Source of the DNA: a virus
Taxonomy: Duplodnaviria > Caudoviricetes
Length of the DNA stretch: 64,000 bases
Direction: 5' to 3' (one strand)
Virus record (IMG/VR): IMGVR_UViG_3300021401_000005
Span: 9,766-73,765 of that record
Shown: positions 100 through 31,600 of the stretch, one piece after another
Layout of the letters: each line of letters opens with the position of its first letter
Position numbering within the stretch: the first letter of the stretch is position 1
Translations under genes and position numbers: made by a program
Notes under the pieces: model-generated
What the model saw: the letters and a program-made list of their open reading frames with translations, nothing else
The model's database searches: none
Told to the model about the DNA's origin: nothing

Positions 100-384
100 G
101 TGAAGCTGCCCAAGCTCGGCCCGACCGGCGACTTCCCGCACGGTAAGCTGTTCGGCGACGATCAGGGCGGCATCAATGTCGCGCTCCGCCGCTTCACCGC
201 TCCGGACGGTCGCCGTATGGTGCGGATCGATTTCGGCAAGCCGGTCGATTGGCTGGCGCTGCCGCGCGAGCAGGCGTTAGCGTTCGCTGCGGTGATCGCG
301 CACTTTGCCGGGGAGGAAGACGATGCCGAAGATCTGGGAAGACGCGGTCCGAGCGATCCGGAAGGCGAGTCCGAACGTCAATGA
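100..384 (+). CDS. Hypothetical phage protein
   Basis: ORF 37..384; GTG at 100 (MKLPKLGPTGDFPHGK) chosen as the likely start. Confidence 0.5.
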   Translation: MKLPKLGPTGDFPHGKLFGDDQGGINVALRRFTAPDGRRMVRIDFGKPVDWLALPREQALAFAAVIAHFAGEEDDAEDLGRRGPSDPEGESERQ

Positions 385-565
385 GTACGCAGTGGCGACG
401 AGCGCCCTCCAAAAGGCGGGCGAATTGAAGCCGGGGACTCGCGAAGCGACCAAGCTCGGGACCAAGCGCGGCAAGATGAGCCGCAAAGAGCGACACGCGA
501 AGCCGCTGGCGGTCGGCGGCGCGGCGAAAGGGCCGTCACTGGGGAGAGCTGCGCGTCCCTCTTGA
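323..565 (+). CDS. Small basic protein with GG motif
   Basis: GGAGG RBS before ATG 323. C-terminal LAVGGAAKGPSLGRAAR resembles FATGGAAKAPSLGRAGR in ORF 7411. Confidence 0.7.
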   Translation: MPKIWEDAVRAIRKASPNVNEYAVATSALQKAGELKPGTREATKLGTKRGKMSRKERHAKPLAVGGAAKGPSLGRAARPS

Positions 566-704
566 CGTCAACTGCCATCCCTGCGCGAACTCCGCCACCG
601 AGATGGCGGACTTCTGACGGCGGACCGGCAGCAAGCGAGCCATGGGAGGGGCACCGCCCGGTCCGTCTCTTGGCGTCCCCTCCCGCCCAACCGGGAGAAA
701 GCCC

Positions 705-1076
705 ATGGCCCAAGCCCCTCAACGCCCAACGCATCAGTCGCAGAGTCAGCAACGCTCCCACCCCGCTCCCACCCCGCCACCGCGCCATCCAGCACAGGGG
801 CCGCCCGCCCGAGCCGGCGTTCCCCAGCGCGATCAGCAGCCGCGCCCGGAACCCGAGGACGAAGCGCCCCCCGAGAAGATCCTCGAAAAGGACGAAGCCC
901 TGGCGCTCTTCCGCGCCGGCCACCGGCTGAAGAAAGCGGGCGACCCGCCAAACAAGTGGATCGCGGCGTCGCGGATACACGGCGTGATGGTCTTGTGCTA
1001 CCCAATGGACGAAGAGATCGAGAAGGGCATCATGGACCAAGAGTTGGTCCTCGCGGATGATCTTCCACAATCTTGA
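705..1076 (+). CDS. Hypothetical protein
   Basis: GGGAGA RBS, ATG 705; ends just before the portal gene. Confidence 0.6.
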   Translation: MAQAPQRPTHQSQSQQRSHPAPTPPPRHPAQGPPARAGVPQRDQQPRPEPEDEAPPEKILEKDEALALFRAGHRLKKAGDPPNKWIAASRIHGVMVLCYPMDEEIEKGIMDQELVLADDLPQS

Positions 1077-1093
1077 TCTGAACGGGGTCGGCG

Positions 1094-3850
1094 ATGGCCG
1101 GGTTTGGCGGATTGGGTGCGATAAGACTCCCGCCGTCAGCCATCGATGGCAGCGTAGACGACCCCGACGACCTCTCGACCCGCTTCGCGCCGAAGACTAT
1201 CGACCTCGACGCTGACGACGGCGACATCGACTACGACAAGGCGACCAAGATCGAGACCGAAGACGGTGGCGTCATCGTCTATGTCGGCCCCAGGCGCATC
1301 CCGAAAGAGGATACCGAGTTCGGCGACAACCTTGCCGAGGTGCTCGGCGACTCTGAGCTGAACGGGATCGCCGACGATCTCCTGCGGCTGATCGAACAAG
1401 ACAACGAATCACGCCGCGAGTGGCTCGACACGCGCGCTCGCGGCATGGAGCTGATGGGCCTTCGCATCGAGTCGATGCGCTCGTCCGGTTCTGACGGCTC
1501 CGCGCCGCTCGAAGGCCAGTCCCAGGTCCGGGCTACGCTACTGGCGGAAGCGGTAATCCGTTTCGGCGCCAACGCTTTCGCCGAGCTGTGCCCCACTGAC
1601 GGGCCAGCCAAGGTCTCCGAAGACACATCGGGCTCGACTGAAGATCTCGACGACCTTTCCGACGCGCTTGAGCACGATCTCAATCACTATCTGACCACCA
1701 CCGACAAGCCGTGGGTCCCTGACACAGACCAGATGCTCCTCCGTGTGGGGCTCGACGGTTGTACCTTCAAGAAAGTCTATCATGACCCGATCCTCCGGCG
1801 GCCGATCTCACGCGCCGTGTTCGGCGACGATCTGATCGTCAACAATAGCGCGACCTCGATCTACGACGCAGGCCGCATCACGCACCGCTCATTCATGCGC
1901 CCGTCGATGATCCGCCGCATGCAGCTCGTCGGGGCCTATCGCGATGTCCCGCTCAACGATACCGGCTTCATCGAAAAGGGACCGATGGAGCTTCAGGCCG
2001 AGCAAATCTCCGGCGTTCGCCGCTTCGACAGCTGGGAGAAGGACGACCGCGATCACGAGATCTTGGAATGCTACTGCGAACTGGACCTACCGGGGTTCGA
2101 GCACGAGACGGATGGCGAGCCGGACGGCTTGGCGGTCCCCTACAAGGTGGCGATCCACAAGGAGACAAGAACAGTCCTTGAGCTGAGAAGGAATTGGAAC
2201 GAAGACGATGAGATGTGTTTGCCGAAAACGTATTTCGTACAGTATCCATTCATTCGCGGGTTCGGATTTTATGCTATTGGCCTAAGTCATCTTCTTGGAA
2301 ATATTACGAACGGCATCACGGCTGCTTGGCGAGAGATCGTCGATGCTGGCATGTTCGCCAACTTTCCAGGCCTTTTAGTTGCGAAGGGCGCGGCTAGACA
2401 GAATAACAACATATTCAGAGTTCCGCCAGGGGGTTCGGCCGAAGTCGAGACCGGCGGCCTGCCAATCCAGCAAGTGGCGATGGGCTTGCCTTACCGATCG
2501 CCAGACTCGGTCTGGGTCGGCTTCGTTCAGCAGCTGAACCAAGAGGGGAAGAGCCTCGGCGGCACGGCCGAGATCATGGTCGGCGAAGGCCGCCAGGACG
2601 CGCCGGTCGGGACGACCCTCGCCCTCATCGAGCAGGCGATCAAACCGCTCATGGCGACGCACAAGAGGCTGTGCGCGGCGCAGAGCGACGAGCTTCAGCT
2701 CCTATGCGAGCGCTTCCGCGAAGATCCGGAGGCGTTTTGGCGCTCGAACAAGCGTTCCGCCTACGACTGGGATGAGCAAGTCTTCCAGCAGGCCTTGAAC
2801 ACGAGCGAAATTGTCACGCGCGCGGACCCGAATACGGCCTCGCATCTCCAGCGAATGTTGAGGAATGCCGCCCTCTACCAGATGGCGAAGGACGAACCGA
2901 GCGCTTTCAACGTCGCTACGATTCGTAAACTCTGCATTCGGGGAATCGGCTTCGCGAACCCTGATCAATTTTTAAATCCGATGCCCTCCGGCCCGCCGCC
3001 GGACCCGAAAGCCCAGGCCGCGATGCTAACCGGGCAGGCGGCGATGATGGATGCGCAGACACGGGCCGGTCAGCTCCAGCTCGACATGCGCGACAAGCCG
3101 ATGGACGACCAGCAGCACCAAGTCGATGCGCAAGTGAAGATGGCGACGTCGAAGATGGCGCTCCAGAAGCAGCAGCTCGCCACCCATACCGCTGGTTTCC
3201 AGGCCCAAAACGAGGCCCGGAAGCCACAGATGGAGGCGCAGAAGCAGCAGCACGAGGCCCAACAGAGCCAGCTCGACCGCGCGCACGACACCGCGAAGCA
3301 ATTGCGCGACCAAGCGCACGAGATGAGCCTGGAAAGAGGCGGCTGGGCGCACGAAGACGCCCGGGAGATGAGGGGTCAACAGCACGAGGCCCAAATGGGC
3401 CAGCAAGAGCAGATGCACGACCGCGTTATGGGCGCGCAGCAGCAGCGATTCGACGCTGTGCGGGACATGCAGGGGCGGCAATTCGACGCCGCGAACGCAC
3501 AGCAGGACCGCGCGCACGAAGACCAGATGGGTCAGCGCGAACAAGCCATCGAATCGCAGCGCGAAGAGCGCGGCCGGCAGCACGAAGAGCAAATGACCGA
3601 CCGCTCGCAGCAGCACGAACGCGTCATGGGCCAGCAACAGGCCCGGGCGAAGATCCAAGAGGTGAAAGCGAGGCCTCAACCGCAGCGCACGAACGGTTCT
3701 GGCTCAGATCGGCAGAAGCGGGCGAGCGGCGGCTCGGTCCATGATGGAATCGACACGCCCTACGGTTTCGCGCGGCGCGCGCCGGACGGAAATCACTACG
3801 TGCAACATCCAAAAACGGGCCAGTACTTCAAGATAACGAGGCGCAAATGA
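1094..3850 (+). CDS. Portal protein (podovirus type) with long Gln/His-rich coiled-coil C-terminal extension
   Basis: 918 aa, first large structural gene. Motifs GCTFKKVYHDP, FIRGFGFYAIGLSHLLGN, DAGMFANFPG and APVGTTLALIEQ are typical of this portal family. Confidence 0.9.
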   Translation: MAGFGGLGAIRLPPSAIDGSVDDPDDLSTRFAPKTIDLDADDGDIDYDKATKIETEDGGVIVYVGPRRIPKEDTEFGDNLAEVLGDSELNGIADDLLRLIEQDNESRREWLDTRARGMELMGLRIESMRSSGSDGSAPLEGQSQVRATLLAEAVIRFGANAFAELCPTDGPAKVSEDTSGSTEDLDDLSDALEHDLNHYLTTTDKPWVPDTDQMLLRVGLDGCTFKKVYHDPILRRPISRAVFGDDLIVNNSATSIYDAGRITHRSFMRPSMIRRMQLVGAYRDVPLNDTGFIEKGPMELQAEQISGVRRFDSWEKDDRDHEILECYCELDLPGFEHETDGEPDGLAVPYKVAIHKETRTVLELRRNWNEDDEMCLPKTYFVQYPFIRGFGFYAIGLSHLLGNITNGITAAWREIVDAGMFANFPGLLVAKGAARQNNNIFRVPPGGSAEVETGGLPIQQVAMGLPYRSPDSVWVGFVQQLNQEGKSLGGTAEIMVGEGRQDAPVGTTLALIEQAIKPLMATHKRLCAAQSDELQLLCERFREDPEAFWRSNKRSAYDWDEQVFQQALNTSEIVTRADPNTASHLQRMLRNAALYQMAKDEPSAFNVATIRKLCIRGIGFANPDQFLNPMPSGPPPDPKAQAAMLTGQAAMMDAQTRAGQLQLDMRDKPMDDQQHQVDAQVKMATSKMALQKQQLATHTAGFQAQNEARKPQMEAQKQQHEAQQSQLDRAHDTAKQLRDQAHEMSLERGGWAHEDAREMRGQQHEAQMGQQEQMHDRVMGAQQQRFDAVRDMQGRQFDAANAQQDRAHEDQMGQREQAIESQREERGRQHEEQMTDRSQQHERVMGQQQARAKIQEVKARPQPQRTNGSGSDRQKRASGGSVHDGIDTPYGFARRAPDGNHYVQHPKTGQYFKITRRK

Positions 3851-4137
3851 GCGAACCACTCGATCCCAATGAAGCGGCCACCCTTTTCTATTCGGGCTCG
3901 CCGATGGCGTTCGTCGCGGTCCCCACCGAGAGCTTCGTCTGCGGCCAATGGATGGGCCAGCGCGCCCTGGTCATGCCGATTCCGTTCGACGATCCTGTCG
4001 CCTACTTCACCGAACACCCGGTGATGCTCTACGACCCCGATTCCGTGCCGTCCGGGCCTGCCGTCTCGGCGACAATCACGGCTGGTGCCCCCTACGCCAC
4101 GGCTCCAAAGGAGAGGAAACATGGTCGCGCTCGTTAA
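3847..4137 (+). CDS. Hypothetical protein
   Basis: ATGA overlap with the portal stop. Confidence 0.6.
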   Translation: MSEPLDPNEAATLFYSGSPMAFVAVPTESFVCGQWMGQRALVMPIPFDDPVAYFTEHPVMLYDPDSVPSGPAVSATITAGAPYATAPKERKHGRAR

Positions 4138-4412
4138 TGGACAATCTGTTGATCTGACCGTCGCCTACACCGATTCTGGAGGTGCGAGCGCCCCCGCGCC
4201 TGGGGCGGTGACTTGGTCGTCGTCTGACGACTCGATCGCTACCGTCGAAGCCAATCCGGACGATGACACTCAGGCGACGGCGGTCTCGGTCGCGGAGGGC
4301 GTTGCGACGATCACCGCCGAGTCCGGCGGGATCGAGACCACCGAGGATGTCGACGTCTCTGCTAGCGAGGCTGTGGCGACTGAGGGCGCCATCACGGCTG
4401 GTGCCCCCTACG
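4075..4412 (+). repeat. Exact 22-bp direct repeat ATCACGGCTGGTGCCCCCTACG (4075-4096 and 4391-4412)
   Basis: Read directly; encodes ITAGAPY in frame in both adjacent ORFs. Confidence 0.9.
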
Positions 4413-4519
4413 ATACGAGTCTGCCGGGAGCGCAGGGCAGCCGTCTGCCGGGTCAGCAGCCGAAGGCTCCGGCGCCTCCCCGGCAAGTTGTGCGGACAAC
4501 GACTACCCAGCGTAGGTAA
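4121..4519 (+). CDS. Ig-like (Big_2-type) domain protein
   Basis: VTWSSSDDSIATV...AVSVAEGVATITAESGG is the bacterial Ig group 2 signature; GGAGAGG RBS. Confidence 0.8.
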   Translation: MVALVNGQSVDLTVAYTDSGGASAPAPGAVTWSSSDDSIATVEANPDDDTQATAVSVAEGVATITAESGGIETTEDVDVSASEAVATEGAITAGAPYDTSLPGAQGSRLPGQQPKAPAPPRQVVRTTTTQRR

Positions 4520-6978
4520 TGGTTGACGATCTCGGCGACTACGACGTCGACCCGGTCGAGGGAAATCCCTTTGGCTCGATGGCGTCGTCGCCGAACGATT
4601 TCGACGTCGCGCCGGTCGATCACGATCCTTTCGCTGGCGCTGGCGGAACCCCGGCGCCAGACCAGTTCGAGCTAGCGTCGAGGCAGCCCGAAGCCACGCC
4701 GTCGAGCGCTGGCGGTCCGCCCTTGGACCCTGGCGATCGGCAAGACCTGATCCGGACTGTCTACGGCGAAGCCGCCGGCGAGCCCGCGCTCGGCCAAGCG
4801 GCAATCGCCCACGCCATCCTCAACCGCGTCCGAGCTGGTGGCTACGGCCAGGGCATTGCTGGCGTCGTCCACGCCCCGGCTGCGGGCGTGAACCCGAAGT
4901 TCGGGTATCATGAGTTCAGCCCCTGGAACACGGGCCGCGCCACGGAAGGCAATCCCGTCGCGCAGAACCTCTCGCCGAAAGACCCGGCTTATGCGCGGAT
5001 CGGCGACATCGTCGACAAGTCCTATTCGGGTCTCATACCCGATCCGACGCACGGCGCGACGCACTATTATGGGCGAATGCCGCACCCGCCGTCATGGGCG
5101 CCGCCGCTCGCCGCGCTGAACAAGGTCAGGATCGGCGGCCAGACCTTCGTCGGTGGCGCGGAAGGCCCAGGTCGAACGCCGATCCAGACTGCCGGCGGCT
5201 ACGCGGGCGGTGGCCCGGTGCAGATGAACGCGGACTTGCAGCGGCGTCTTGCGATGATAACGCGGCCTCGACACGGGTTCGCCGACGGTGGCGATCCGGA
5301 CCAGCCCGCGCCAGATGATGCGGCTCCCGCCATCATGGGCCACGTCGCAGCGACGCCAGACCCCAATCAGCCAATGACGGCGCGCTACCTCGAAACCCGT
5401 CCGCAGGGATCGATCGCGCCTTACGACCCGTCATGGGGCGAGCGGATTCAGCAGGGCGTCAGCGAAGCGGGGCAGGCGCTCGGTCAGCCTGCTCAAGGTG
5501 CTGAGCGCCTAGGCGAGGCGGTGCGGACCGGCGCGGAGATGGTGCCCATCTCCGGCAACATCCTGTCTGGCAACGAAGCCTATCGCGACGTCCAGTCTGG
5601 CAATTACGGCTCTGCGGCGCTGAGCACGCTCGCCGCCTTTCCGATCCCCGGCGCAACCGCCGAGGAGGGCGCAACGCGCAGTGTCTTGCGTCACGCTGAC
5701 GAGGCTTTCCCCGAGGGGCGGATCGCCACGGCGGTGCCGTCCAACAAGGCGCTCGTCGATTCGGCGCACGCCTCGAACGATCGGACCATCAGCTTCGACA
5801 CCATGCGAGCCGACCCTGTCATGTACGGCAAGACTGCCGATCTCATTCGCAGCATGCCCGACATCCAGCTCCCGCCGAATGCCACCGACGACGAGGTGCA
5901 TCAGGCGTTCATCGCTCACGCCAAGAGCAACATTTTGGCGCTGCACGACGCTGTCCCTGACGACATCCGAGGCGGCTCGCAACAGTGGTACGACGGGGCC
6001 AACCAGATCGCGGGCGATCGGGCGCAGCGGTTCAATCGCCCGCTCGAAAACGTCGCGGGCGTCTATGCCGCGCTCTCCCCGAAAATGGACTGGTTCAAGA
6101 ACGTCAGCCTCGGCGACCGGCTGATGGACATCATGCACAACCAGAAATGGTCTGGCTTTACTCCCGAGATGGATGCCTGGGTCGCCAATCGCTACGGCGG
6201 CAGCCAAGTGCCGGCCGACGTCAAGGCCGCCACTGCTTATGCGAACCTCAAGGCCAAGATGGGCCAAGGCCAGATGCTCGGCGATCTCTCTGACCCGATC
6301 GAGCAAGCGCACTTCGTCCGCGCCTATGACGAAGCGCACAACCCTCGCGGCTACAACATCGTCAATCCCGATGGCTCGTTCGCAGGCCCAGCCATGACCG
6401 GGAAAGGCGAGGAAGGCGAAGTCGGTTGGGCCGGGTTCAACGCGATGGCGAACGCCATCAAGTCATTCAACGCACAAGACATGACGACGGTCTCGAAAGC
6501 GATGGGCGACCGGCACAAGGTGCGCTCGTTCTACAACAACATCGTCGCGCCGAACTCGCTCGCTGGCGATGTCACTGCCGACACGCACGCTATCGCCGCC
6601 TCGCACTTGCGACCCTTCTCGCTCGCTGACGAAGAGGTGACTAACGGTCTTGGAAGCACTGGACCGAAGTCAGGCGAAACCGGCGCCAAAGGGCTCTATG
6701 GACTCTACGCCGATGCTTATCGGCAGGCGGCGGCCGAGCGCGGGATTCTACCGCGCCAGATGCAATCGATCACTTGGGAGGCGCTGCGCGGCCTGTGGAC
6801 CCCGGCAGAGAAGCGCAGCGCTTCCATCAAGCAGGGGGTCGAGGATTCGTGGAACGCCTACGGGGGGCGCAACGGCCTGACACTGCCGCAAGTCCAACAG
6901 CGGCTGATCGGAACGCCGTCGCGCATCAGGGCACCGTCTTGGCACACGGGCGCCGCCGGGGAGGAGCTGGAGCCCTAG
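4519..6978 (+). CDS. Multidomain protein: SleB-like cell wall hydrolase plus C-terminal DUF7178/HhH-like domain
   Basis: RTVYGEAAGEPALGQAAIAHAILNR...GATHYY (Hydrolase_2). Later QWYDGA, YAALSP, KVRSFYNNI, VTADTHA and AYRQAAAERGILPRQMQSITWEALR. Confidence 0.75.
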   Translation: MVDDLGDYDVDPVEGNPFGSMASSPNDFDVAPVDHDPFAGAGGTPAPDQFELASRQPEATPSSAGGPPLDPGDRQDLIRTVYGEAAGEPALGQAAIAHAILNRVRAGGYGQGIAGVVHAPAAGVNPKFGYHEFSPWNTGRATEGNPVAQNLSPKDPAYARIGDIVDKSYSGLIPDPTHGATHYYGRMPHPPSWAPPLAALNKVRIGGQTFVGGAEGPGRTPIQTAGGYAGGGPVQMNADLQRRLAMITRPRHGFADGGDPDQPAPDDAAPAIMGHVAATPDPNQPMTARYLETRPQGSIAPYDPSWGERIQQGVSEAGQALGQPAQGAERLGEAVRTGAEMVPISGNILSGNEAYRDVQSGNYGSAALSTLAAFPIPGATAEEGATRSVLRHADEAFPEGRIATAVPSNKALVDSAHASNDRTISFDTMRADPVMYGKTADLIRSMPDIQLPPNATDDEVHQAFIAHAKSNILALHDAVPDDIRGGSQQWYDGANQIAGDRAQRFNRPLENVAGVYAALSPKMDWFKNVSLGDRLMDIMHNQKWSGFTPEMDAWVANRYGGSQVPADVKAATAYANLKAKMGQGQMLGDLSDPIEQAHFVRAYDEAHNPRGYNIVNPDGSFAGPAMTGKGEEGEVGWAGFNAMANAIKSFNAQDMTTVSKAMGDRHKVRSFYNNIVAPNSLAGDVTADTHAIAASHLRPFSLADEEVTNGLGSTGPKSGETGAKGLYGLYADAYRQAAAERGILPRQMQSITWEALRGLWTPAEKRSASIKQGVEDSWNAYGGRNGLTLPQVQQRLIGTPSRIRAPSWHTGAAGEELEP

Positions 6979-7190
6979 CCCCGCTCCACCCGCTGCCAAG
7001 GCTCCGGCAGCTCGGCCTCGTCCTCGGCCGTCCACGGCTTCGGCGTATCGCCGCCCCAGTTCAGGTCGATCCACGTCTGCCGGGTGAGCGGCAGGCCGTT
7101 CTTGATCATGTAGGCCAGCATCGGGTTGTGCTGGGCCGCGTGGAGCAGCTCCGGGTCGACTCGTCGTTGGGTCTGCTGGATTTGGGCCAT
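6975..7190 (-). CDS. Small hypothetical protein, antisense within the late region
   Basis: GGAGG RBS on the - strand; 71 aa with normal composition; convergent overlap with the 4519 ORF. Confidence 0.65.
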   Translation of the reverse strand: MAQIQQTQRRVDPELLHAAQHNPMLAYMIKNGLPLTRQTWIDLNWGGDTPKPWTAEDEAELPEPWQRVERG

Positions 7191-7240
7191 CCCAGCCTCC
7201 TATTGGAATGGGGCGGGACCTAAGCCCCGCCCCCCGCGCC

Positions 7241-7305
7241 TGCCTTGCCGTGCCATGCCGGACCGAGTCCAGCCTCGCCCAGCCAAGCCGCGCCTTGCCA
7301 CGCCT
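7241..7305. repeat. Array of 13 pentamers, consensus NGCCN
   Basis: tgcct tgccg tgcca tgccg gaccg agtcc agcct cgccc agcca agccg cgcct tgcca cgcct. Confidence 0.85.
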
Positions 7306-7314
7306 CGGTGCGAT

Positions 7315-7329
7315 TTGCACCAACTGCAA
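7315..7329. promoter_or_regulatory. Palindromic operator TTGCA-N5-TGCAA
   Basis: GATTTGCACCAACTGCAAGAT is 20/21 identical to the copy at 34185-34205. Confidence 0.75.
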
Positions 7330-7410
7330 GATAAGAGCCCTTTCGCCCAATTGCAATCGGCGCCATAAACTCACGCCGTTGAAAGGCTGGACCCGAACGA
7401 GGGTCAAGCC

Positions 7411-8457
7411 ATGGGCCAATATTCACAGAAGTCGTTCACGACCGACAAATTGAAAAAATTTGCGGTCAGTGGCAACAACGGCAGCAACGGCGACAAAGCC
7501 GAGGCGGCCGACGATTACGGGCGGAAAGCCGCCAAATCGAGCGATTCTTCGGCCTTCGCCACGGGCGGGGCGGCGAAGGCGCCATCGCTTGGTCGCGCCG
7601 GCAGAGCTGGCGGCGGCCGGGTTGCGCGCGCCGAGGGCGGCAGGACGCGCGACCTCAGCAAGCTCACCGACGGCGGCCCGGAATCCTATGGCGACCGGCC
7701 TCTCATTCGCGCCAAGGGCGGCCGAATCGGGAAGCAGCTCGGCGGCGCTCTGCCACAAGGGACGCCCCCTGGCTTGGCCGCGCCGCCCCCGGCGGGCCAG
7801 ATCCCTGGCCTGCCTGGGCTGGGGCGCAAGAAGGGCGGCCGGGTCGGGCGCTGGAAGGGCGGCCCGTCGTATGACCGGCTCGGCCAGAAAGACGCTATGG
7901 CCTCGGACGCCCCCGGTTACGGGGAGGACATCCCTGGTGGCCGAGAATACTACGACTTCATTCGCGGTGGTCTCGGCACCTCGAAGATCGGAGCGCCGCG
8001 AGGCCAAGGCGGCATTGGCTCCGATGAGACCGCTGAGCCAACGGACCAGCGTCGTGGCGGCCGGGTCGGCCGCGCGCATGGCGGACGCACCAAGGGCAAG
8101 GGCAAGACCGTCGTCAACGTCATCGTCGGCGGCCACGGCGATCAGCAGCAGCCCCCGCCGCCGCCCGTCATGCCGCATCCAGCGATGCCGCCGCCTCCAC
8201 CTCCGCCGCAGGCCGCGCCACCGAAGCCGCCGATGCCGATGGGCATGCCTATGATGCCTCCCGGCGCCATGGGCGGCGCTCCGCCGATGGGCATGCCGCC
8301 CCCAGGAGGCGGAGGCATGCCTCCTGGGATGCCGCCTCCCGGCATGGGCCGCGCTCACGGCGGCCGGATCAACGAGAGATTCGGCGCGGCGTCCGGCCAG
8401 GGCCGGATGGAGAAGGCGCGTCGCGAGAACGATGGAAAGGTGAAGTTGGCCGAATGA
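7411..8457 (+). CDS. Gly/Pro-rich low-complexity protein with about 10 [RFK]-x-x-GG motifs (probable internal head protein)
   Basis: FATGG, RAGGG, RAEGG, RAKGG, KQLGG, RKKGG, RWKGG, QRRGG and RAHGG x2. Confidence 0.75.
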   Translation: MGQYSQKSFTTDKLKKFAVSGNNGSNGDKAEAADDYGRKAAKSSDSSAFATGGAAKAPSLGRAGRAGGGRVARAEGGRTRDLSKLTDGGPESYGDRPLIRAKGGRIGKQLGGALPQGTPPGLAAPPPAGQIPGLPGLGRKKGGRVGRWKGGPSYDRLGQKDAMASDAPGYGEDIPGGREYYDFIRGGLGTSKIGAPRGQGGIGSDETAEPTDQRRGGRVGRAHGGRTKGKGKTVVNVIVGGHGDQQQPPPPPVMPHPAMPPPPPPPQAAPPKPPMPMGMPMMPPGAMGGAPPMGMPPPGGGGMPPGMPPPGMGRAHGGRINERFGAASGQGRMEKARRENDGKVKLAE

Positions 8458-8687
8458 GCATGTTCGTGAACAGCGAATCGGACGATCGCACCATCAACAA
8501 CGACGTCAGGCATCAGTACCGAGTTCTCACTGATGCCGAGAAGACGATCATGGTCCGCATCAAGGACGAGGGCGCGCTGTTTCTGGCGATGATCGATTCC
8601 GTCATCCCGCAAGGCCGGGAGAACTCGCTCGCTAAGACGAAGATCGAGGAGGCCGTCATGTGGGCCGTCAAAGGGCTCACGAAATAG
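8454..8687 (+). CDS. Acb2/Tad1-like cyclic nucleotide sponge candidate (anti-defence)
   Basis: YRVLTDAEKTIMVRIKDEGALF and GRENSLAKTKIEEAVMWAVK match the helical-hairpin pattern recalled for Acb2/Tad1-family proteins. Confidence 0.65.
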   Translation: MSMFVNSESDDRTINNDVRHQYRVLTDAEKTIMVRIKDEGALFLAMIDSVIPQGRENSLAKTKIEEAVMWAVKGLTK

Positions 8688-8912
8688 ATGGACGCGACCT
8701 CAGTCTTCCTCGCCAACAAGCTGATCGAGCGCATCGAGGCCAAGCAGAAGGAAATGTTGCGTCCGCTGATCAACGGCGCGGCGACTGACTTCCCCGACTA
8801 CAAAAAACGCGCCGGATACCTTGAGGCGCTTGGTCACGTCATCGACTGGATTGGCGAAATCAGCGCCGAAGAAGACGAACACGGAAGAGGCCCAATTGCC
8901 CGCGCATCATAG
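8688..8912 (+). CDS. Hypothetical protein preceding the GroES-like gene
   Basis: Tightly coupled ORF; small helical protein. Confidence 0.65.
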   Translation: MDATSVFLANKLIERIEAKQKEMLRPLINGAATDFPDYKKRAGYLEALGHVIDWIGEISAEEDEHGRGPIARAS

Positions 8913-9303
8913 AATCGTAACCCTCCATCTGGAGGACCCGCGAGACACTATCTGGAACGGTTGCGGCGAGGATCTCGGCAAGGTCGAGCCCTTCAACCAA
9001 CAGGTGCTCGTCGCGACCTATATCCGCCCCGCCACGCGCACCGCGAGCGGCCTGGAGATCGCCGAAGAGGCGGTCGATGAGGATCGCTATCAAGGCAAGA
9101 TCGGCATGGTCTTGAAGAAGGGGCCGCGCGCTTTCGTCGATGACGGTCCGGTCCAGTTTTATGGCCAGAATGTTGAGCCTGGGGACTGGGTGGTCTTCCG
9201 GGGTTCTGACGGCCTCAAGAGCATGATCGGCTCCCGCGAGGTCCGGTTCATTCCCGACGTTTTCATCAAGGCGAAAATCGATCACCCGGACGCGGTATTC
9301 TGA
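8896..9303 (+). CDS. GroES/Cpn10-like co-chaperonin
   Basis: VEPFNQQVLV...RTASGLEI...GMVLKKGPRAF...VEPGDWVVF is the Cpn10 pattern. TTG start at 8896 inferred from the GGAAGAGG RBS. Confidence 0.8.
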   Translation: MPAHHRIVTLHLEDPRDTIWNGCGEDLGKVEPFNQQVLVATYIRPATRTASGLEIAEEAVDEDRYQGKIGMVLKKGPRAFVDDGPVQFYGQNVEPGDWVVFRGSDGLKSMIGSREVRFIPDVFIKAKIDHPDAVF

Positions 9304-10364
9304 TGCCACGAGAGACGGACGACCCCGAGCAGGCGACGCACTTCGGCGCGCTGATCGACGAACCGGACGACGATCTCTCGCCGGAGGAGCGATTAGAGCC
9401 GAAAACCGTCGTTGTCGGCGGCGCGCCGGTCCGCAAGGGCGACAAAAAGCCCACGCCGGCCGAGGTAGACTCGCCGATGCGGGCGTCGCCGGAGCCCCCG
9501 CCGGAGGATGAGGGCGTCCTTGAGCTGAAGCGCCAGCTCGCCAACCAGCAAAGTATGACGGCGCGCGCGGCCCAAGTGGCCCAGGCCGAGCACCAGCGGC
9601 GCATCCAGGCCGAACGCGGCCTAACCCAGTCGAATGTGCAGATGGTCGACGCCGCGATCGAGGCGGCGAAGCGCGATTCCGAACAGGCGCGAGCCTACTT
9701 CCAGGGCGCGCTCGATCGCGGCGACCACAAGGGCGCGTCCGAGGCCCAGGTCCTGCTCTCCGACGCCCGAGCCAACCTTCTGCGGCTGATGGAGATGCGC
9801 GAAGGCGTCGTCGCCGAGGCGCAGCAGCAGCCACAGCAGCAGCCGCAGCCGAGGCAGGCGCCGCAACCGCAGCGCCAGTACACGGACCCCAGCCAGCTGA
9901 TGCAGGCCAACGTCCAAAACCTCTCCGGCCACCTCGACCGAACCGGCTTCCCGAAGAGCGCTGCGTGGATCAGGTCCCACCCCGAGGCGGTCAAGGATCA
10001 GGCGGCGATCGACTCGGTCGACGGCGCGCACAACGCTGCCGTCAAGACGTTCAAATTGATCCCCGAAACAGACGCCTACTTCGACAAAATCGAGGAGCTG
10101 CTTGGCGCAGGAGAAGACCGACAGATGGGACCACAGACGCGCCAGGGCCAGCGCCAGATGGGCCAGTTGCAGCGAAACATGGCCGCGCCGGCCCGCGCCG
10201 AAGCGCCAAGCTTGCGCACCGGCCGCACGCGCGGCACGGCGGTCGCGCTCACCGCTCGCCAGCGTGAGCATGCCCGCGACGTCCTCGGCATGAGCGACGA
10301 CGAGTACGCGGCCGAGCTGCTCGACGCTCAGTCGCGAGGCAAAATGTTGGGAGCCCGCTCATGA
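9303..10364 (+). CDS. Probable capsid scaffolding protein
   Basis: Acidic N-terminus, coiled coil, C-terminal VALTARQREHARDVLGMSDDEYA; lies upstream of the capsid genes. Confidence 0.7.
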   Translation: MPRETDDPEQATHFGALIDEPDDDLSPEERLEPKTVVVGGAPVRKGDKKPTPAEVDSPMRASPEPPPEDEGVLELKRQLANQQSMTARAAQVAQAEHQRRIQAERGLTQSNVQMVDAAIEAAKRDSEQARAYFQGALDRGDHKGASEAQVLLSDARANLLRLMEMREGVVAEAQQQPQQQPQPRQAPQPQRQYTDPSQLMQANVQNLSGHLDRTGFPKSAAWIRSHPEAVKDQAAIDSVDGAHNAAVKTFKLIPETDAYFDKIEELLGAGEDRQMGPQTRQGQRQMGQLQRNMAAPARAEAPSLRTGRTRGTAVALTARQREHARDVLGMSDDEYAAELLDAQSRGKMLGARS

Positions 10365-10933: not shown

Positions 10934-10935
10934 CC

Positions 10936-11175
10936 TTGACAGATCGCCGAATCTTGCGCGAGAAACTGAACCGCCACCGACAAGTGCGTAATTCGGAGCC
11001 TCGCGAGCATCGGAAAGCGCAAACTCCGGACGGGCAACACCGTCGGCCCATGGCATTCCCGACTTAGGCGGTAGGTGAGGGTGCGGCGCTCGTGCTCTCG
11101 CTTGAAAGACTGCAAGTCACGTCCGGCGCTCGGTGTGACGAACCCTGAAATCCCGCAATCGCGGAAGGGATCGTC
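10936..11175 (+). promoter_or_regulatory. Candidate promoter (TTGACA at 10936) and structured ~240-nt leader of the capsid operon
   Basis: Perfect -35 hexamer but no clear -10; several hairpins, two carrying CGGCGCTCG. Confidence 0.45.
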
Positions 11176-11775: not shown

Positions 11776-11789
11776 GGAGGATCTGACCG

Positions 11790-12704: not shown

Positions 12705-12718
12705 ACTGAGGAAATACG

Positions 12719-13939: not shown

Positions 13940-13949
13940 GGAGGCTTCG

Positions 13950-14333
13950 ATGCGAGGCGAATCGGGTCGCAGTAATCGGGCGTCTGGCGGCAGCGCGCTC
14001 AAGAAGCAGTCAGCCAAGCATGTCGTGCGTGAGGCGAAAGGCGCCCATCCGCACAACGAGCCTGACGACGCCACCTCGCGCGGCGATGGACCGATCTTCC
14101 GCGCCAAGGGCGGCAAGGTGAAGAAATTCGCCGACGGCGGCGCGCTCAAGCGGGCCTTCGGCGGCGCAACGATCGGCGGCGGCGGCAAGAAGCCCTCGGC
14201 AGGGCGAGCCGCTCGCGCACGCGGCGGCGGCGTCGGCGCGGATCTGCATCCCAAAACGCACGAGGGTGGCTCCGGACCGAAAGGCCGCAAGATCATGAGC
14301 GATTCGGAGAAAGAACCCGAGGACTGCAACTAA
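13950..14333 (+). CDS. Small basic protein with five xAxGG motifs
   Basis: AAGGAGG RBS before ATG 13950; RASGG, RAKGG, FADGG, RAFGG, RARGG. Confidence 0.75.
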   Translation: MRGESGRSNRASGGSALKKQSAKHVVREAKGAHPHNEPDDATSRGDGPIFRAKGGKVKKFADGGALKRAFGGATIGGGGKKPSAGRAARARGGGVGADLHPKTHEGGSGPKGRKIMSDSEKEPEDCN

Positions 14334-14435: not shown

Positions 14436-14446
14436 AGGAGAGTTGA

Positions 14447-17278: not shown

Positions 17279-17286
17279 GGGGCTCC

Positions 17287-24305: not shown

Positions 24306-25019
24306 ATGCCCGGTTACAATCCATCGTCAATTAGAATCCAGCGCATGCTTGGCGCGACGGCGCCTATCCGCCCGCCGAAGATGCCGAAACCGATGTCGAC
24401 GCCGAAGTTCGGCCCCGGGATCAGCGATCGGATGCTGATGCGGCCAGGGCGCGCCGACGGCGGCGGCATCACCGACAGTCCCGCCTCACCCTTCGCGGGC
24501 GGCATCATGTCGACCGGCGCGGGCCGCGCCGACGACGTCCCGATGCATGTCCCGAACGGGGCCTATGTCATGCCAGCCTGGGCGGTCAGCCATCTCGGCG
24601 AGGGGAACACCATCAACGGCATGAGCCAATTGAAGATGATGTTCGGCAGTCCGTGGGGCGCGCCAAAGACGCCGTTCGGCGCTCCGAGCCCCGCGCTTTC
24701 GGTCGGCAAGGGCGTCCCCATGCCGCATCCGAAGCCTCCGCCCATGCACTTCCAACCACCGAATTTCTACCCACAGGGCATGTCGGCGGAGAACCCGGCG
24801 CTGAGCGACAAGCAGAAGCACGGCGGTGCGGCGGTCGGCGGTGGGGGAGCGATCCCGATCAACGCGAGCGGCGGCGAGTTCGTGATCGACCCGGACGAGG
24901 TTGCGAGAATCGGGGACGGCAACGTCAATAAGGGACACAAGGTCCTCGACTTGTGGGTCATGAAGTTGAAGAAAGAGGCAGCCGACACGCTCAAGAAGCT
25001 CCCCGGTCCGGCGAAATAG
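24306..25019 (+). CDS. Protein with duplicated GG...G(E/A)(F/Y)V module
   Basis: RADGG...GAGRADDVPMHVPNGAYVMPAWAVSHLGEGN and KHGG...INASGGEFVIDPDEVARIGDGN. Confidence 0.7.
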   Translation: MPGYNPSSIRIQRMLGATAPIRPPKMPKPMSTPKFGPGISDRMLMRPGRADGGGITDSPASPFAGGIMSTGAGRADDVPMHVPNGAYVMPAWAVSHLGEGNTINGMSQLKMMFGSPWGAPKTPFGAPSPALSVGKGVPMPHPKPPPMHFQPPNFYPQGMSAENPALSDKQKHGGAAVGGGGAIPINASGGEFVIDPDEVARIGDGNVNKGHKVLDLWVMKLKKEAADTLKKLPGPAK

Positions 25020-25029: not shown

Positions 25030-25596
25030 GTGAAAGAGTTCTCGCGCGAGCACGAAGCCGAGCTGCGGGACACGCCGCCGCGCACCCCGATCCGCTTAGC
25101 CGATGACGACGACGAGCTGGGCATCCTCGACATGTGTCGGCTGATGCACCGAGAGCAGCCCTATCACCCGCTCAACGTCGGCAAGGTGGCGGCGATGATC
25201 AGGCTCGCCATCCATCAGGGGCCGGAGCGGCGTGGCATCCTCGGCGTGATCGGCGAGCGCGACCATCTCCGGGGCGCGATCTTCCTGCTGATCGAACCAA
25301 TCTGGTACTCGGACGACTGGCAGCTGCTTGAGTTTTTCAATTACGTGCGGCCGGAATATCGGCGCGAGGGCTACGCCCAAGATCTCATAGCCTACGCCAA
25401 GCGGTGCAGCGATCAGATCGGCATCGACCTCACCATCGGCGTGTTCTCGAACATCCGGACCGCCGCGAAGATCCGCCTCTATCGCCGCTGGGTCCCGCAG
25501 TTCGGCGCGTTCTTCTGTTACGCGCCCCCGAACCGGAAACCGTTTATCGATCGCCTCGCTGAAATGACGCCCGTGAACAAAGTCGCGGCGGAGTAG
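25030..25596 (+). CDS. GNAT-family acetyltransferase-like protein
   Basis: IRLADDDD, FFNYVRPEYRREGYAQDLIAYAK (GNAT motif A); precedes the ejection genes. Confidence 0.75.
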   Translation: MKEFSREHEAELRDTPPRTPIRLADDDDELGILDMCRLMHREQPYHPLNVGKVAAMIRLAIHQGPERRGILGVIGERDHLRGAIFLLIEPIWYSDDWQLLEFFNYVRPEYRREGYAQDLIAYAKRCSDQIGIDLTIGVFSNIRTAAKIRLYRRWVPQFGAFFCYAPPNRKPFIDRLAEMTPVNKVAAE

Positions 25597-25601: not shown

Positions 25602-28600
25602 ATGGGCTCGAAGGGCGGCACCACTCAGCAGACATCGACGCAATCCTCGTCGGGTCCCCCGCCCCAGGTCCTGGCCGAGTATCAAGGCCTCGTCGACCGC
25701 GCGACCAACGTCGCGAACCAACCCTATCAGCCCTACCAGGGCGAACAGGTCGCCCCGCTGGCGTCCCAAACGCTTCAGGGGCTTGGCCAGATCGGGCAGT
25801 ACGCCAACGCGGCCCAACTTCCCTTATTTGGAGCGAGCGCGGGCACCTCCCAGGCAATGCAATCGGCGACGGACGAAGCTCTGGGCTCGGCTGGCGCAGC
25901 ATCGGGCATGACTGGGAATGTGGCGAACGCGGCCATGGGCATGACCGAAGCCGCCGCCGCGCCCGTCAACGCGGAGCAATTCCAGGGCCAAAGTTCGCTC
26001 CAGCCTTTTATGAACCCGTACACGTCCGATGTTGTCCAGGCGACCCAGAACGAGTTCAATAATCAGAACCAACAGCAGGCACAGTTTCTCAACAGCGCGA
26101 ACATAAGTTCAGGCGCGTTCGGCGGCGACAGGGCTGGCGTCAGCCAGGGGATTCTGGCCAATCAGCAGCAGCTCGCCGAAGCGCCGACGATCGCCGGCTT
26201 GAACCAAGCCAACTTCACCCAGGCCATGCAGGACTGGCAGCAGCAGCAAGGGGTGAACCTCGGGGCAGCGCAAGCGAATCGCAGCGCCTTGATGGGCGCC
26301 GCGAACCAGTACGGAAACCTCGGCCTGACTGCCGCCAACCAGATTGGGAACCTCGGCCTAAACGCCGCGCAAGAAGTCGGGAATGTCGGCCTAGCCGGGT
26401 CGAACCAGATGGGGCAGATCGGCCTGTCTGAGCAGCAAGCAGGGCTTCAGGGCGGCCAAGCGCAGATCCAAGCCGGCACGATCCCGCAGACCGAACAGCA
26501 GGCGATCGATACCGCCGCCCAGAACATGTACCAGACTGGGCAATCGTATCCGTTCACCACCACCGGCTGGCTCGGCAACATCATCGAGGGAACCGGAAGC
26601 CTCTCCGGCGGCCAGGGCTCCAGCACCACGACCTCTCCTGGGCCGAACGCGATCACTCAGGGGCTCGGCGCGGCCTCGCAAGGCGTTGGGCTCCTGGGCA
26701 GCATAATGTCGCTCTCCGACGAGCGCGCGAAGGAGAACATCGAGCCGATCGGCGAGACCTACGACAATCAGAAAATCTACAGGTACAACTTCAAGGGTGA
26801 CCCGCGCACCCAGATCGGCTTGCTGGCGCAAGAAGAGGCCTATCACCATCCAGGCAGCGTCCAGCGGATCGGCATGGGCGATCTGCTTGGCATCGACTAC
26901 GGCGGCGCGACCGAAGACGCGGCCGATCGCGGTCACTTTGCCTCTGGCGGCGCGCCGCCGGCGAGCATGGCGGGGCTGGGCGCCATGGGCGGGATGGGCG
27001 GCGGCGGCGCGATGTCTCCGGGCTCGGATCTCATGTTTAGCGGCGATCCTGGCGCGCGGATGGGCATGGGCACGTTCGCTCTCATGGGCGGCTCCAATGT
27101 CCGTCCGGAACCGACTACGGCCATGTCGCGTCCGCCTGGGTGGGAGCCTCCATATCAGCCTGCGCCGCAGGCGCCTCCGCCGCAGCAGAATTTGCCACAG
27201 TCTTCGTTTCGCCAGTTGCAGCAGTATGGTCTTAGCGGAGGCGAGGCCCGCCCGAGCTTCCAAGGCGGCGGCACGGCCATCACTACCCCAGAGGAAGCCA
27301 TTCCGATCGGCACGAGCGGCCAGTCCAGCTACACCCAAGGCTGGCAGCCGGGGGATCTCCTGAACCCTGCCGCTGGTGTATCCGAGGCGTTGTTCGGCGA
27401 GGCGACGGCGGGGTCGAAGACCCCCTACTACGGGCTGGATCTCGACCAGCTGAACGCGATCGGCGGCGGGCAATGGATGCCGCCGGACACCAACGCGCCG
27501 CAGCCGGACTATGGGAACCTCCAGAACTCGCCGCAGTTCGGCGCGGCCGAGAAGTCGCTCTCGGGCCTGTTCGGCCCCGGCTACACGCCGGGATCGACCG
27601 GCGCTCCGCCTGCGACATCTCCGGTGGCCGCCGCCGCCGCCAAGCCCGCCGCGCAACAGCAACCAGCGGGGCATTGGCAATCAGTTGGCGGGACGACCAC
27701 TGGCGGTGCAGCCGGGGGCGAAAACCTGGGCATGGGCGCTCAGATCGGAAACGTCTTTCAAAATGAATGGGTGCCCGACCCGGCCGTGTCGACCGTAGCG
27801 GCCACCGCCGCGCCGGGGCTCGCGACGGGAAAAGCAGACGGCGGAGGAGTGAGCATGAGATCCGGCTTCCAGCGCGGCGGCTTCCCGCAATTCACCACCT
27901 ACCAGCCGACCGCGAACCCGGCGCGCACCCCGCCGACCTATACCGCGCTCGATCTCTCGCACATGTTCGGCGGCGGGCAGCAGCCGCAGCAAGCGCCGCG
28001 CGCCATCCAGATCCAGCGCCAGCTCGGGCAGGCGCGCGCCCAGGCGGCGGCCCAGCGTGGCATCGTGCGGCCTCGCGTCATCGCCCCGGACCCGGTGACC
28101 GGCCAGCATCACGACATCACCCCGCCCGACCATCCTTCGACCGCGCGCTATCCCGGCTGGCCGACTCCTGGGCCGGGAAACGCAACCCCTGATGGCTTGC
28201 CGATGAGGCCGCCAGCGCGGGTGCCGCTCCAGACCTCGCCGAACGCCTTTCCTGGGGGCGTGGCCAATCCGACCATTCCGTCTTCGCGCGGCGGCGGCAT
28301 GGGCTTCCCGAGTTTGGGCATGGTGCCCGCAGCGGCGGCTGGCACGCCACCGGGACCGCTGGCCTCGGCGTCGTGGTGGGGCGGTTTGCCGAAGGAGGAA
28401 CTGCCTTCGAGATCTCGTGGCCTGACAACGGTCGCGCCGCCGCTTGATGGCACGCAGGAATGGAACAAGCCTTCGGCCGAGGTCGAGAGCCCCCGCGAGA
28501 GCGCCGAATTTTCAGAGGCGGGGCGACCGCTGATGGCGCCGAGGCTCATTGGCGCCGATCCTGGCGGGCAGCACACTTTGCTAGGGCCGCACTCGATGCA

Positions 28601-31600
28601 GGCGCTCCCGCCGCCGTCCGGCGACGAAGCGCCCATGCACAGTGGCTGGGACGTCGACCTCCCGGGCGTCTTCCGAGGCGGTGGCCACGGGATCGCCGCC
28701 GAGGCGCGCGGCGGGCGGGTTCCTCGCTACTACGGAGGCCGGATCGGCCGCGATGACGGCGGCTCGATCCCGATCGGCGGTGGCGCGGGCAACGTCATGG
28801 AGGCACCCACTGGCACCCCTGCCTCGCCCGATCTCAGCGATATCGATTGGAACTCGATCTTCGGCGGGGACCCAGGCCAGGGAGCGGTTAGGACGCCGGA
28901 CTTCTCCGCGCTTCCCGATGATACGTTCGATCTCGGCGGCGGCTCTCCGCAGCGCGCCCAGATCGATCCGCGAGCTGTCGCCCAAGCGCCTAGCTTCCAG
29001 GGCGCAAGCGGGGGCGGAGGCGGCGGCCCTCACTTTACCCAGGTCTCCAACATGGGCGGGCCGCCGATCTCCGCGCTTGACCTCTCGGGCCACTACACGC
29101 CGACCACCGGCAACGCGCGCGGCGCAACCTATGTCCCGGGAGCCGGCGGCGCAGCTGGCGCAGGGATCAGCCCGAACGCGCGCGCTGAAGCGCCGGAGCA
29201 CCCAGCGATTGCGGTGGCGCGCCATATCGCCAGCAGAGCGCACGCGGCAGGATTCGCGGCGGGCCACGCGGCGGGGAGAGGGGCGTCGGGGAGAATCATC
29301 CCGACCCAGATGGGGCCGGAGGGGGTAGCCAGTCCGAGGCCCTACGGGCCACAGCTGTCCACGAACCCCACCCAGATGGGGCCGGAGGGGGTAGCGAATT
29401 ATCAGGGCGGCGGCGGCGTCATGGGCTCCTCGCCCGTCATGAACGCGGGCGCCTACACCCCGCAGGGCGAGGGCGTGACAGGCCAGACCTCGCAGGGTCG
29501 AGGCATGGGGTTCGGCGATCTGTTCGGCGGCGGCGACCGCGCTGGCTTCCAAACCGGCGGAGAGGCCGGGGTCGATCCGTTCCTGGCGGCGATTGACGCC
29601 GCCGTGACGCAGGGGCCGAGAGGACAAGGCCCGCCCCAGGCGCCCCAGGCGCCCAAGCCGCCGGAGCCGCCGGGGCAGGGGCAGCAACCGGGAGGCGACC
29701 TCGGCAAGAACATCCAGAGCCTTACCAGCGGTATCAAAGGCCTCGGCGGCCAATCGCAAGGCGGGGGCGGGGGCGGGGACGGCTCATCGGGCCTGACCGG
29801 CGGCGACCCGAGTGACCTCTCCGGAGGCTGGGGCGACATGGCGGGCACGCCGAATATGGACGACGCCTCGCTCGGTCTGTCCATGGGCGATGATTTCGGC
29901 TTTGCGATGGGAGGTGGCGTGGGGCTTGGCTCCCTACGCGGTGGCTTTTCCGATGGCGGGACGCCGGACCTCGATGCGCTCGATGCCGAGGTTGCAGGGG
30001 CTCCGCCCCCTGGCCAAGTAGCGGCCGCTCCCGCGACGGGCGCAGGCAAAGGAGGCGGAGGCGGGAACGTCTCTGACCTCATCAATCAGAATTTCGGCAA
30101 TCGAGCGGGATACGCCTCGACGATCTCCTCGCTCGAAAGCAGCATGGGCAAGAACTATGTCGGCGACGGCGGCTCGTCCTTCGGGCCGTACATGCTGCAC
30201 TACGGCGGGGTCAGTCAGAAGTATCCGCACCCCGGTCTCGGTGATGAGTTCACCAAGCAGACCGGCCTCGATGCGCGCGATCCGTCGACCGTGCCGCAAC
30301 AGATCAAATTCGTTGCGGATTACACCGCCGCGCACGGCTGGCACGATTGGTCGACGAAGGCCCAAGCCGACAAGCTAACGGGCGGCGCGCCGACTGCGGT
30401 GGCCGGCGCTGATGTCCCGTCTGCGGCAGCTCAGCCCGCGCAGGCGAGCACGGAAGCCTACGGCGGCGGCTTCCAGATTCCTCCTGGCCAGGGCAGTCCG
30501 CCTCCTGGGCAGCTGAACCGGGCCAATCTTCAGGCGCCCACCATGGGCGACGAGATCCGGCACGATCCGTTCGGCTACATGATGACGGTCGGCGCGGGGA
30601 TGATGGCTTCGCGCTCGCCGTGGCTCGGCGTGGGGATCGGCGAAGGCTTCGAGGCCGGGAACAAATACCTCCAGTCGCAGAAAGAGCTGGAGAAGAGCTG
30701 GGGCCAGACGCAGGCGCAGATCAACAACCTGTCGCAGGAAGCGCGCGATCATGGCGCGGACGCGGATCTGAAGGCCCAGCAGCTCCAGACTGCGTCGCTG
30801 ATGAACAAGCTCATGATTGAGAGGATGCGCCAGAAAGGTCTGATCCCCGGCGGGACCAGCGGCGCGCCCTCGCCAGCGCCCACAGGAGGCCCAGGACAGG
30901 GCCTCCAGCCTACCCAGCCCCTTACGACCCTCGGCGGCGGCTCGGGCTCCAGCGGGGCTCCTAGCGGCCCCAGCGCGCCATCCGGAGGTGCCGCCGCTCC
31001 TTCCGGTCCGGCTCCTGCGGACCCAGATGCGGCCCCGAGGATCGAGGACGACCCGCTCTACAAGCAGGCCCAGGATCTATACACGAAGGCTCAAGACGCG
31101 GAACTCGACGACAGATTGATGGGCACGCACACGGCCGAGGATATGCGGGCACAGGCTAAGGAGCTGAGCGACGCCGCGCAGAAGAATTTCGAGAAAACCT
31201 CGGCCCCCTACGGCGCGAAAATCGAAGCGCAAAAGGCTGGCTTTACCGAGTACCAGAAGAGGGCTGACGAGTTCACTGGCGACTATCAGAGCAATGTCGA
31301 GATGCTTCAGCAGCTCGGGAAGATCTACCAGCACTATCGATCCGGAACCGGCGCGGGAGACATCGGCGAAATTCAGGGCTTCGCCGATCGCTTCGGCCTC
31401 GGCGGTGTTCTGCCGCAGGGGTGGGACAAGGCCGGTTATGACGCCGCCATGAAGACGGCGGTCGATGCCGCCTTCCAAAAGATGCAGTCCAGCGGAGCTA
31501 ACAAGGCGCCCAGGTCCATCATGCAAGAGGCGTTGACGACTTCGCCGACGCCAACCAACGATCCGGCAGCCAACTGGAAGATCATCACCGAGACCCTGGC

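Follow-up and report, generated by a model that had tools for sequence, protein, structure and literature searches.

A conserved diglycine motif at module junctions of podophage internal and ejection proteins coincides with the mapped maturation site of a tape-measure protein

The DNA analysed here (the window) is a stretch of 64,000 nucleotides (nt), bases 9766-73765 of the 73,765-base virus record IMGVR_UViG_3300021401_000005, with a GC content of roughly 64%, ranging over 62-68%. Its + strand carries a podophage-like late operon from ~300 to 34,100, in which seven open reading frames (ORFs) encode proteins with a five-residue motif that ends in Gly-Gly. These carriers are the portal protein, in its tail, three small basic proteins, a hydrolase/DUF7178 protein, ORF24306 and a 2089-amino acid (aa) ejection protein:

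323..565, + strand: ORF323, a small basic protein of 80 aa from the ATG at 323; LAVGG at residue 62 (nt 506-520)
1094..3850, + strand: portal protein, 918 aa, phrog_1216; RASGG at residue 876 (nt 3719-3733), 42 residues from the C-terminal end
4519..6978, + strand: ORF4519, a virion protein of 819 aa with a SleB-type Hydrolase_2 domain (87-210) and DUF7178
7411..8457, + strand: ORF7411, 348 aa, 21% Gly, basic and proline-rich; 11 motif matches (nt 7555-8364)
13950..14333, + strand: ORF13950, 127 aa, basic; RASGG, RAKGG, FADGG, RAFGG and RARGG (nt 13977-14228)
24306..25019, + strand: ORF24306, 237 aa, two cassettes and a C-terminal LPGPAK
25602..31871, + strand: ejection protein, 2089 aa, with a match to phrog_4287 ('DNA ejection protein') over its N-terminal ~435 aa

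The closest named record, judged by the portal, is MW202675.1 (46% identity); megablast of window positions 1-20000 against phages gave no match, and in IMG/VR there are 30 loci whose portal is 61-100% identical to that of the window. A search of the open-access literature, with subscription journals and supplements outside its reach, found no published description of the motif. Its consensus has R, K, F, Y or H at position 1, A (sometimes Q or K) at position 2 and any residue at position 3, followed by Gly-Gly, and V, I or T often stands two residues past Gly-Gly. A preliminary description of this DNA had put the number of copies at about 30; every copy that it named is present, but the count was too low, as [FYRK]xxGG matches 46 times in the 27 late ORFs (10,669 aa). 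The carrier proteins hold 37 of these matches, and the remaining nine are in a major capsid protein (MCP)-like protein (one), a 1014-aa protein (four), ORF31873 (two), ORF20054 (one) and ORF33658 (one).

The enrichment in late over early proteins that had been proposed was evaluated against 1000 composition-preserving shuffles each, made globally and also inside blocks of 20 aa and 10 aa, which preserves local Gly richness, and it was borne out. In the late set, the 46 matches compare with about 24 expected (23-25.5; z 4.5-4.8), a count reached by 0/1000 shuffles, and the narrower form [FYRK]AxGG occurs 18 times versus 2.8-3.0 expected (z ~9; 0/1000). The corresponding values for the early/replication set (45 ORFs, 7,420 aa) are 12 versus ~7 expected, reached by 49-70 of 1000 shuffles, and 2 versus 0.8 expected, reached by 177-187 of 1000. 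Two Gly-rich controls, the collagen-like fibre ORF17287 (23% Gly, 53 GG) and ORF12719 (14.8% Gly, 9 GG), have 0 matches each. Since the pattern was defined on the window data itself, it was re-tested on other sets. The 29 late proteins of MW202675.1 contain 31 matches versus 17.7 expected (0/1000) and eight [FYRK]AxGG versus 2.0 expected (1/1000), and 150 ORF24306-family representatives distant from one another (clusters less than 50% identical) contain 296 [FYRK]AxGG versus 15.6 expected (standard deviation 3.6).

Among 313 family-wide copies, position 1 is R in 43%, K in 30%, F in 13%, Y in 8% and H in 6%, position -3 is R in 38%, and V, A, T or I are the commonest residues two past Gly-Gly. 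Of the 113 copies that lie upstream of the first cassette, 95 have A at position 2, and between them they show 17 different residues at position 3. Distinct coding 15-mers number 22 for the 23 window copies whose second residue is A or Q; together with the varied position 3 and the mostly invariant alanine at position 2, this indicates that selection acts on the peptide and not on the DNA, and an origin as a repeated DNA element was rejected on the same 22 distinct 15-mers. We conclude that the short linear motif is real and is maintained by purifying selection.

Conservation of the copies in related phages, a check also proposed earlier, was found in the following carriers. The portal-tail copy is kept in 28/28 homologues, even where tail identity is only 34-48%, and in the most distant of them F or H stands in place of R, so that basic and aromatic residues are interchangeable at position 1 of one orthologous site. 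ORF7411, which has no family match, had been credited with ten copies and has 11; six of these follow [FR]AxGG, mostly as RAxGGR(V/I/T). When 12 homologues are aligned, the copies stand out as conserved islands in an indel-rich protein: copy number varies from 6 to 12, and identity is 0.89 at the fixed motif positions, 0.30 at position 3 and 0.49 in the other columns. The five copies described in ORF13950 are all present, and the open frame is kept in 4/4 related virus records (70-77% identity) with five copies retained. All 13 aligned homologues of ORF323 have an L-x-x-GG copy (LAIGG in 10/13) followed by a K/R-x-P-x-x-GR element. A related feature of the three small basic proteins is a ~17-residue element, GG-x-x-K-x-PS-x-GRA-x-R, common to ORF323, ORF7411 and ORF13950 (506-565, 7555-7617 and 14180-14228); it is kept in homologues, and in two of the three proteins another motif copy comes after it.

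In the larger carriers the copies mark joints. ORF4519 has a pair, YAGGG at residue 228 (nt 5200-5214) and FADGG at residue 254 (nt 5278-5292), which lies where the preliminary description had placed it, between Hydrolase_2 and DUF7178, whose best match begins at residue 470 (profile position 17). The homologues of this protein are mosaics, and of the 15 internal boundaries between BLAST blocks, 9 lie no more than 10 aa from the pair versus 0.9 expected, the homologues being kin to each other and the 15 boundaries thus not independent events. Extra motif copies in the homologues flank inserted domains. In one related locus (L014), the counterpart of ORF4519 is split into two genes, 5236-6417 (hydrolase and motif pair, 393 aa) and 6476-7645 (DUF7178 part, 389 aa).

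The 2089-aa protein has 16-17 matches to the regular expression, including all ten copies named earlier, and four full-length homologues retain 13 of 17 as motifs; these homologues were taken from related records, the locus search having given one locus. The 13 conserved copies span nt 26937-30386, several of them paired 8-15 residues apart; those at 1109 (partly), 1379, 1483 and 1931 are not kept and are probably chance matches. Conserved blocks begin at copies 553, 744 and 1591, and 6 of 18 block boundaries lie near a conserved copy versus 2.4 expected. Stand-alone phrog_4287 proteins end at about FASGG 446. Just before that copy, at the end of the phrog_4287 part, residues 372-411 (~nt 26715-26834) match Peptidase_S74, the self-cleaving intramolecular chaperone of endosialidases, and this segment could provide a second, autocatalytic cut in the protein. 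In one related record (L052, G003:C1:9000-16400), the counterpart is divided between open frames of 1081 and 1097 aa, and one TGA is reported within the match. The break falls at about residue 950-966 of the window's version and may reflect a split gene, a frameshift or an error in sequencing.

ORF24306 carries two cassettes, each consisting of a motif copy, 10-30 residues and a strand-strand-helix-helix unit. Its copies are RADGG at residue 49 (nt 24450-24464) and QKHGG at residues 170-174 (KHGG, nt 24813-24827). The suggestion that the copies sit in disordered linkers agrees with the structure prediction for this protein: an AlphaFold2 model has a mean predicted local distance difference test score (pLDDT) of 58, with both motif regions below 50. 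The model of ORF4519, built on a 10-sequence alignment (mean pLDDT 43, residues 1-423 all below 50), is too poor to place its copies in linkers. A Foldseek search of the ORF24306 model against the PDB gave no match at E <= 0.001, and a profile search of PDB sequences gave a chance-level match only (E 0.82). The family comprises 3902 clusters in a profile search (E <= 0.001) and has no Pfam model.

Longer relatives of ORF24306 carry the cassettes at the C-terminus, behind ART-PolyVal, GNAT or DUF7178 domains (the GNAT fusion is in P0176), and this arrangement suggests that the double cassette may be a virion-incorporation or ejection module of polyvalent proteins. These are large multi-domain, virion-delivered proteins for which processing by MPTase zincin peptidases has been predicted (Iyer et al. 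2017, PMC5512222); in the main text of that article the words 'glycine' and 'linker' occur 0 times each, and a word search of it gives no junction motif. In six polyvalent members of the family (P0098, P0104, P0225, P0176, P0165 and P0189) the motif recurs at many points of the chain. For example, P0098 has copies on both sides of its ART-PolyVal domain and just ahead of its C-terminal cassettes. No embedded MPTase was found in the six proteins scanned. Two window proteins likewise combine at least two unrelated domains near virion genes: ORF4519, with Hydrolase_2 and DUF7178, and the 2089-aa protein, with its phrog_4287 region, its S74 segment and over 1600 residues beyond these.

The one site at which the motif can be matched to a mapped cut is in the tape-measure protein (TMP) of phage T5, pb2, whose cut is the only one of its kind to have been mapped precisely. 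That tape-measure proteins are processed by proteolysis has been recognised since the 1970s and 1980s, and LC-ESI-TOF-MS located the maturation cut of pb2 'after R1127' in the results reported by Linares et al. (2023, PMC10038345). In the T5 sequence, numbered as in the PDB entries, this bond is the R|A of RAEGG (...VPR|AEGG...), with 92 residues remaining. Two [FYRK]AxGG copies occur among the 1218 bonds of pb2, and exact coincidence with the cut is expected about once in 600. The T5 authors' model, as presented in the same article, is that pb2C is freed to act on peptidoglycan and pb2* forms a channel. A protein search with the pb2 C-terminus gave 431 matches, of which the 120 listed are all T5-like and at least 90% identical.

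The FATGG that the preliminary description placed in lambda gpH is present: it is at 733, with YATGG at 778, and the two flank a conserved GE-F-V module in the region removed as gpHC. According to the account of gpH in a 2025 paper, ~14 kDa is lost from the Gly-rich C-terminal region, leaving ~78 kDa, and site and enzyme are stated there to be unknown. A hypothetical cut after F733 would give 79.8 and 12.5 kDa, which is compatible with ~78 and ~14 kDa and indistinguishable from cuts at 710-722. The motif region of gpH finds 1044 phage records by tblastn, mostly annotated as tape-measure. Four of four further diverse TMPs have the layout F[AS]xGG ... GEFV ... YAxGG, at 119-131 and 74-84 residues from the C-terminus, and T5 too shows a motif followed by a GE-x-V strand. 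ORF24306 has the same layout, with KHGG, ~13-14 residues and GGEFVIDP, and with RADGG, ~30 residues and NGAYVMPA. By hhalign, the ORF24306 family and a profile of five TMP cassettes align over 44 columns, motif to motif and GE-F-V to GE-F-V, at a weak score (E 4.4e-4, probability 33.5%); the family and lambda alone align over 21 columns (E 0.0039, probability 8.6%), and the pb2 C-terminus gave no match. The DT57C paper (2023) had reported an alignment with no conserved motif among TMP C-terminal fragments. A degenerate cassette is also discernible in the HK97 TMP gp16 (L036), where residues ~987-1007 read FAKGAG and then a G-P-E-A-I-M-P-L strand, with no Gly-Gly.

Because the T5 tape-measure protein is cut at the same motif, the motif is probably a widely shared cutting site. 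By analogy with pb2, our favoured reading, to which we give an even chance of being correct, is that the motif is a maturation cleavage or junction site of injected and internal virion proteins. In this reading, the motif would mark joints between modules of proteins that reside in the DNA-filled virion lumen and exit through the tail. Precursors would be cut between position 1 and the alanine, the register mapped in pb2, presumably during or after assembly, and the splitting of multi-module precursors would provide modules with separate fates at ejection. Proteins of the ORF7411 type would yield short basic peptides. The protease cleavage site proposed in the preliminary description thus gains indirect support from the T5 cut, the TMP C-termini and the domain and mosaic junctions. 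The shared motif also suggests a module and a maturation step common to the ejection proteins of podophages and the tape-measure C-termini of siphophages.

As to the enzyme, a host peptidase is our leading and, by analogy, a reasonable guess, because host oligopeptidase A (OpdA) trims P22 gp7 just ahead of Gly-Gly. The residues that OpdA prefers beside the scissile bond are Gly and Ala. Oligopeptidases are a poor fit here, however, as enzymes of this type would not be expected to cleave large folded proteins at internal sites. The title of a 1973 T5 paper, as given in a citation, reportedly speaks of host involvement and is a second reason for the guess. Besides S74, one peptidase domain was found in the window, in the product of a separate early-region gene, and as the processing enzyme it is a weak candidate:

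59465..60406, - strand: ArdC-N and MPTase-PolyVal zincin metallopeptidase

Several observations weigh against cleavage of the window proteins. It is carried over from a single mapped site, in a siphophage that is not related, and within pb2 the second copy, RALGG 138, is without a reported cut, so that the motif alone may not suffice. The T5 and lambda copies precede a GE-x-V module that most window copies lack; the likeness of the ORF24306 family to the TMP cassette is a weak resemblance in sequence profiles, with homology not proven; and the motif is not universal, the HK97 TMP and the P22 ejection proteins being without the GG form. In the 2089-aa protein, block ends at 660-666 and 1470 lie away from copies. 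A P1 position that accepts both basic and aromatic residues would be unusual for a single protease, and neither Pfam nor PHROGs identified a prohead protease between the portal and capsid genes, nor did one turn up among 62 window ORFs. MPTase is not supported as the cognate protease, being present in two of five motif-bearing records, which are two close relatives, and absent from MW202675.1, lambda and T5.

The strongest alternative, which we consider rather unlikely, is that the motif is an uncut hinge or docking motif, either a flexible joint for unfolding and threading through portal and tail or a peptide that binds a partner in the lumen; the T5 cut would then fall at the motif merely as an exposed joint. 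The occurrence of copies in low-confidence model regions and indel-rich segments agrees with such a role, a portal-tail copy kept in 28/28 homologues could be useful without being cut, and neither a cut at T5 RALGG 138 nor a protease co-occurring with the motif is on record. However, ordinary linkers do not hold a five-residue consensus across 150 clusters less than 50% identical, the T5 cut falls exactly on the bond between positions 1 and 2, one of two such bonds among 1218, and a docking motif has no known binding partner.

Nucleic-acid binding of the RGG type, in which the basic Gly-rich copies of ORF7411, ORF13950 and ORF323 would bind or neutralise packaged DNA, is suggested by the composition of ORF7411 and ORF13950, both basic and Gly-rich with repeated R-x-x-G-G-R units, and by a positional counterpart in MW202675.1 with K-rich copies. 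We consider it improbable, given that many conserved copies are aromatic at position 1 or have acidic neighbours (FADGGD, RDDGGS, YADGGE) and that the strongly conserved alanine at position 2 is not required by RGG boxes. A head-loading, or capsid-targeting, signal that recruits cargo into procapsids was part of the earlier proposal. All carriers here are plausible head-internal proteins, with a copy in the portal tail; nevertheless, this function is very unlikely, as the motif is conserved in siphophage tape-measure proteins, which are assembled in tails and never in heads, as up to 13 conserved copies occur at internal junctions of one protein, and as the ORF24306 C-terminal double cassette is a better candidate for an incorporation domain. 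Finally, chance or composition in Gly-rich coding sequence of 62-68% GC, or a repeated DNA element, is highly improbable even though the Gly content of several carriers is 14-21% and the definition of the motif came after inspection of the data, since shuffles that keep local composition never reach the counts, Gly-rich controls are without the motif, the enrichment is replicated in other sets and the 23 copies have 22 distinct 15-mers.

The reading as a maturation site can be taken further, to a single code [R/K/F/Y/H]|A-x-G-G for tape-measure, ejection and polyvalent proteins in thousands of phage lineages, read by one conserved host or virion enzyme. We regard this extension as possible, leaning somewhat against it; if true, lambda gpH would be cut after F733 and/or Y778, and ORF7411-type proteins would be precursors of basic peptides packed with DNA. 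A shared motif that coincides with the mapped site makes it possible to predict, cheaply and concretely, where lambda and T1-like phages would be cut and which mature products would arise from the large injected polyvalent proteins with anti-host enzymes, and it offers a handle for finding the protease.

The remaining late genes include the following, the scaffold assignment being a lead only:

8821-9303, + strand: GroES/Cpn10-like protein, in the head module between ORF7411 and ORF9303
9303-10364, + strand: ORF9303, scaffold-like
11790-12704, + strand: capsid-like (MCP-like) protein with one [FYRK]xxGG match
16041-16889 and 20054-20893, + strand: two SU10_adaptor paralogues on either side of the collagen-like fibre gene (17287-19878)
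late operon upstream of ORF24306, + strand: 1014-aa structural protein
25030-25596, + strand: GNAT acetyltransferase between ORF24306 and the 2089-aa ejection protein, motif-free and of interest as context only

The GroES/Cpn10-like gene is kept at 45-100% identity in 13 related loci, and its annotation in MW202675.1 is co-chaperonin; the position of the GNAT gene is likewise occupied in MW202675.1. No TMP Pfam domain was found among the 27 late ORFs, and the tail genes (the two SU10_adaptor genes and the fibre gene) are of podophage type. Outside the late operon, the window encodes RecT, YqaJ, a primase, a helicase, SNF2 and the ArdC-N/MPTase-PolyVal protein. A 251-aa phage protein encoded at 37816-38571 has a terminal PEP-CTERM sorting motif (E 2.9e-07), which hints at a host with an exosortase system.

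Four known systems bear comparison with the one described here. Gly-Gly-directed viral and ubiquitin-like processing resembles it in a diglycine element that recurs in several virion proteins. Adenain, PLpro and DUB/JAB enzymes cut after Gly-Gly, in contrast to the T5 cut three residues ahead of it, and no JAB, DUB or C39 peptidase or ubiquitin-like beta-grasp domain was found in 62 window ORFs; the analogy to ubiquitin-like processing drawn in the preliminary description was therefore abandoned. P22 gp7 and host oligopeptidase A resemble it in that an ejection protein is cut just upstream of Gly-Gly, leaving the mature N-terminus KGGKG, but this is a single N-terminal cut after residue 20 without alanine at P1', and P22 gp7, gp20 and gp16 have no [FYWHRK]xxGG copy. 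The gp7 cut and the lambda gpB cut (...REYA|GYHGGG... in GenBank) are upstream of Gly-Gly and out of register with the motif, and were set aside as loose parallels. The polyvalent proteins are matched by the fusion of ORF24306 relatives to ART-PolyVal, GNAT and DUF7178 domains and by the presence of an ArdC-N/MPTase protein in the window, and differ in that T5, lambda and MW202675.1 have the motif but no MPTase. A further likeness is to the tape-measure proteins, T5 pb2 (giving pb2* and pb2C) and lambda gpH (giving gpH* and gpHC), which have the same five-residue motif, cut in T5 between its first two residues, whereas the window proteins are podophage internal and ejection proteins that are not coiled-coil and carry up to 13 conserved copies each. 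Tape-measure processing and the predicted processing of polyvalent proteins were already known; a shared junction motif that falls on the T5 cut and occurs in many copies in the ejection proteins of podophages was not found in the open-access literature searched.

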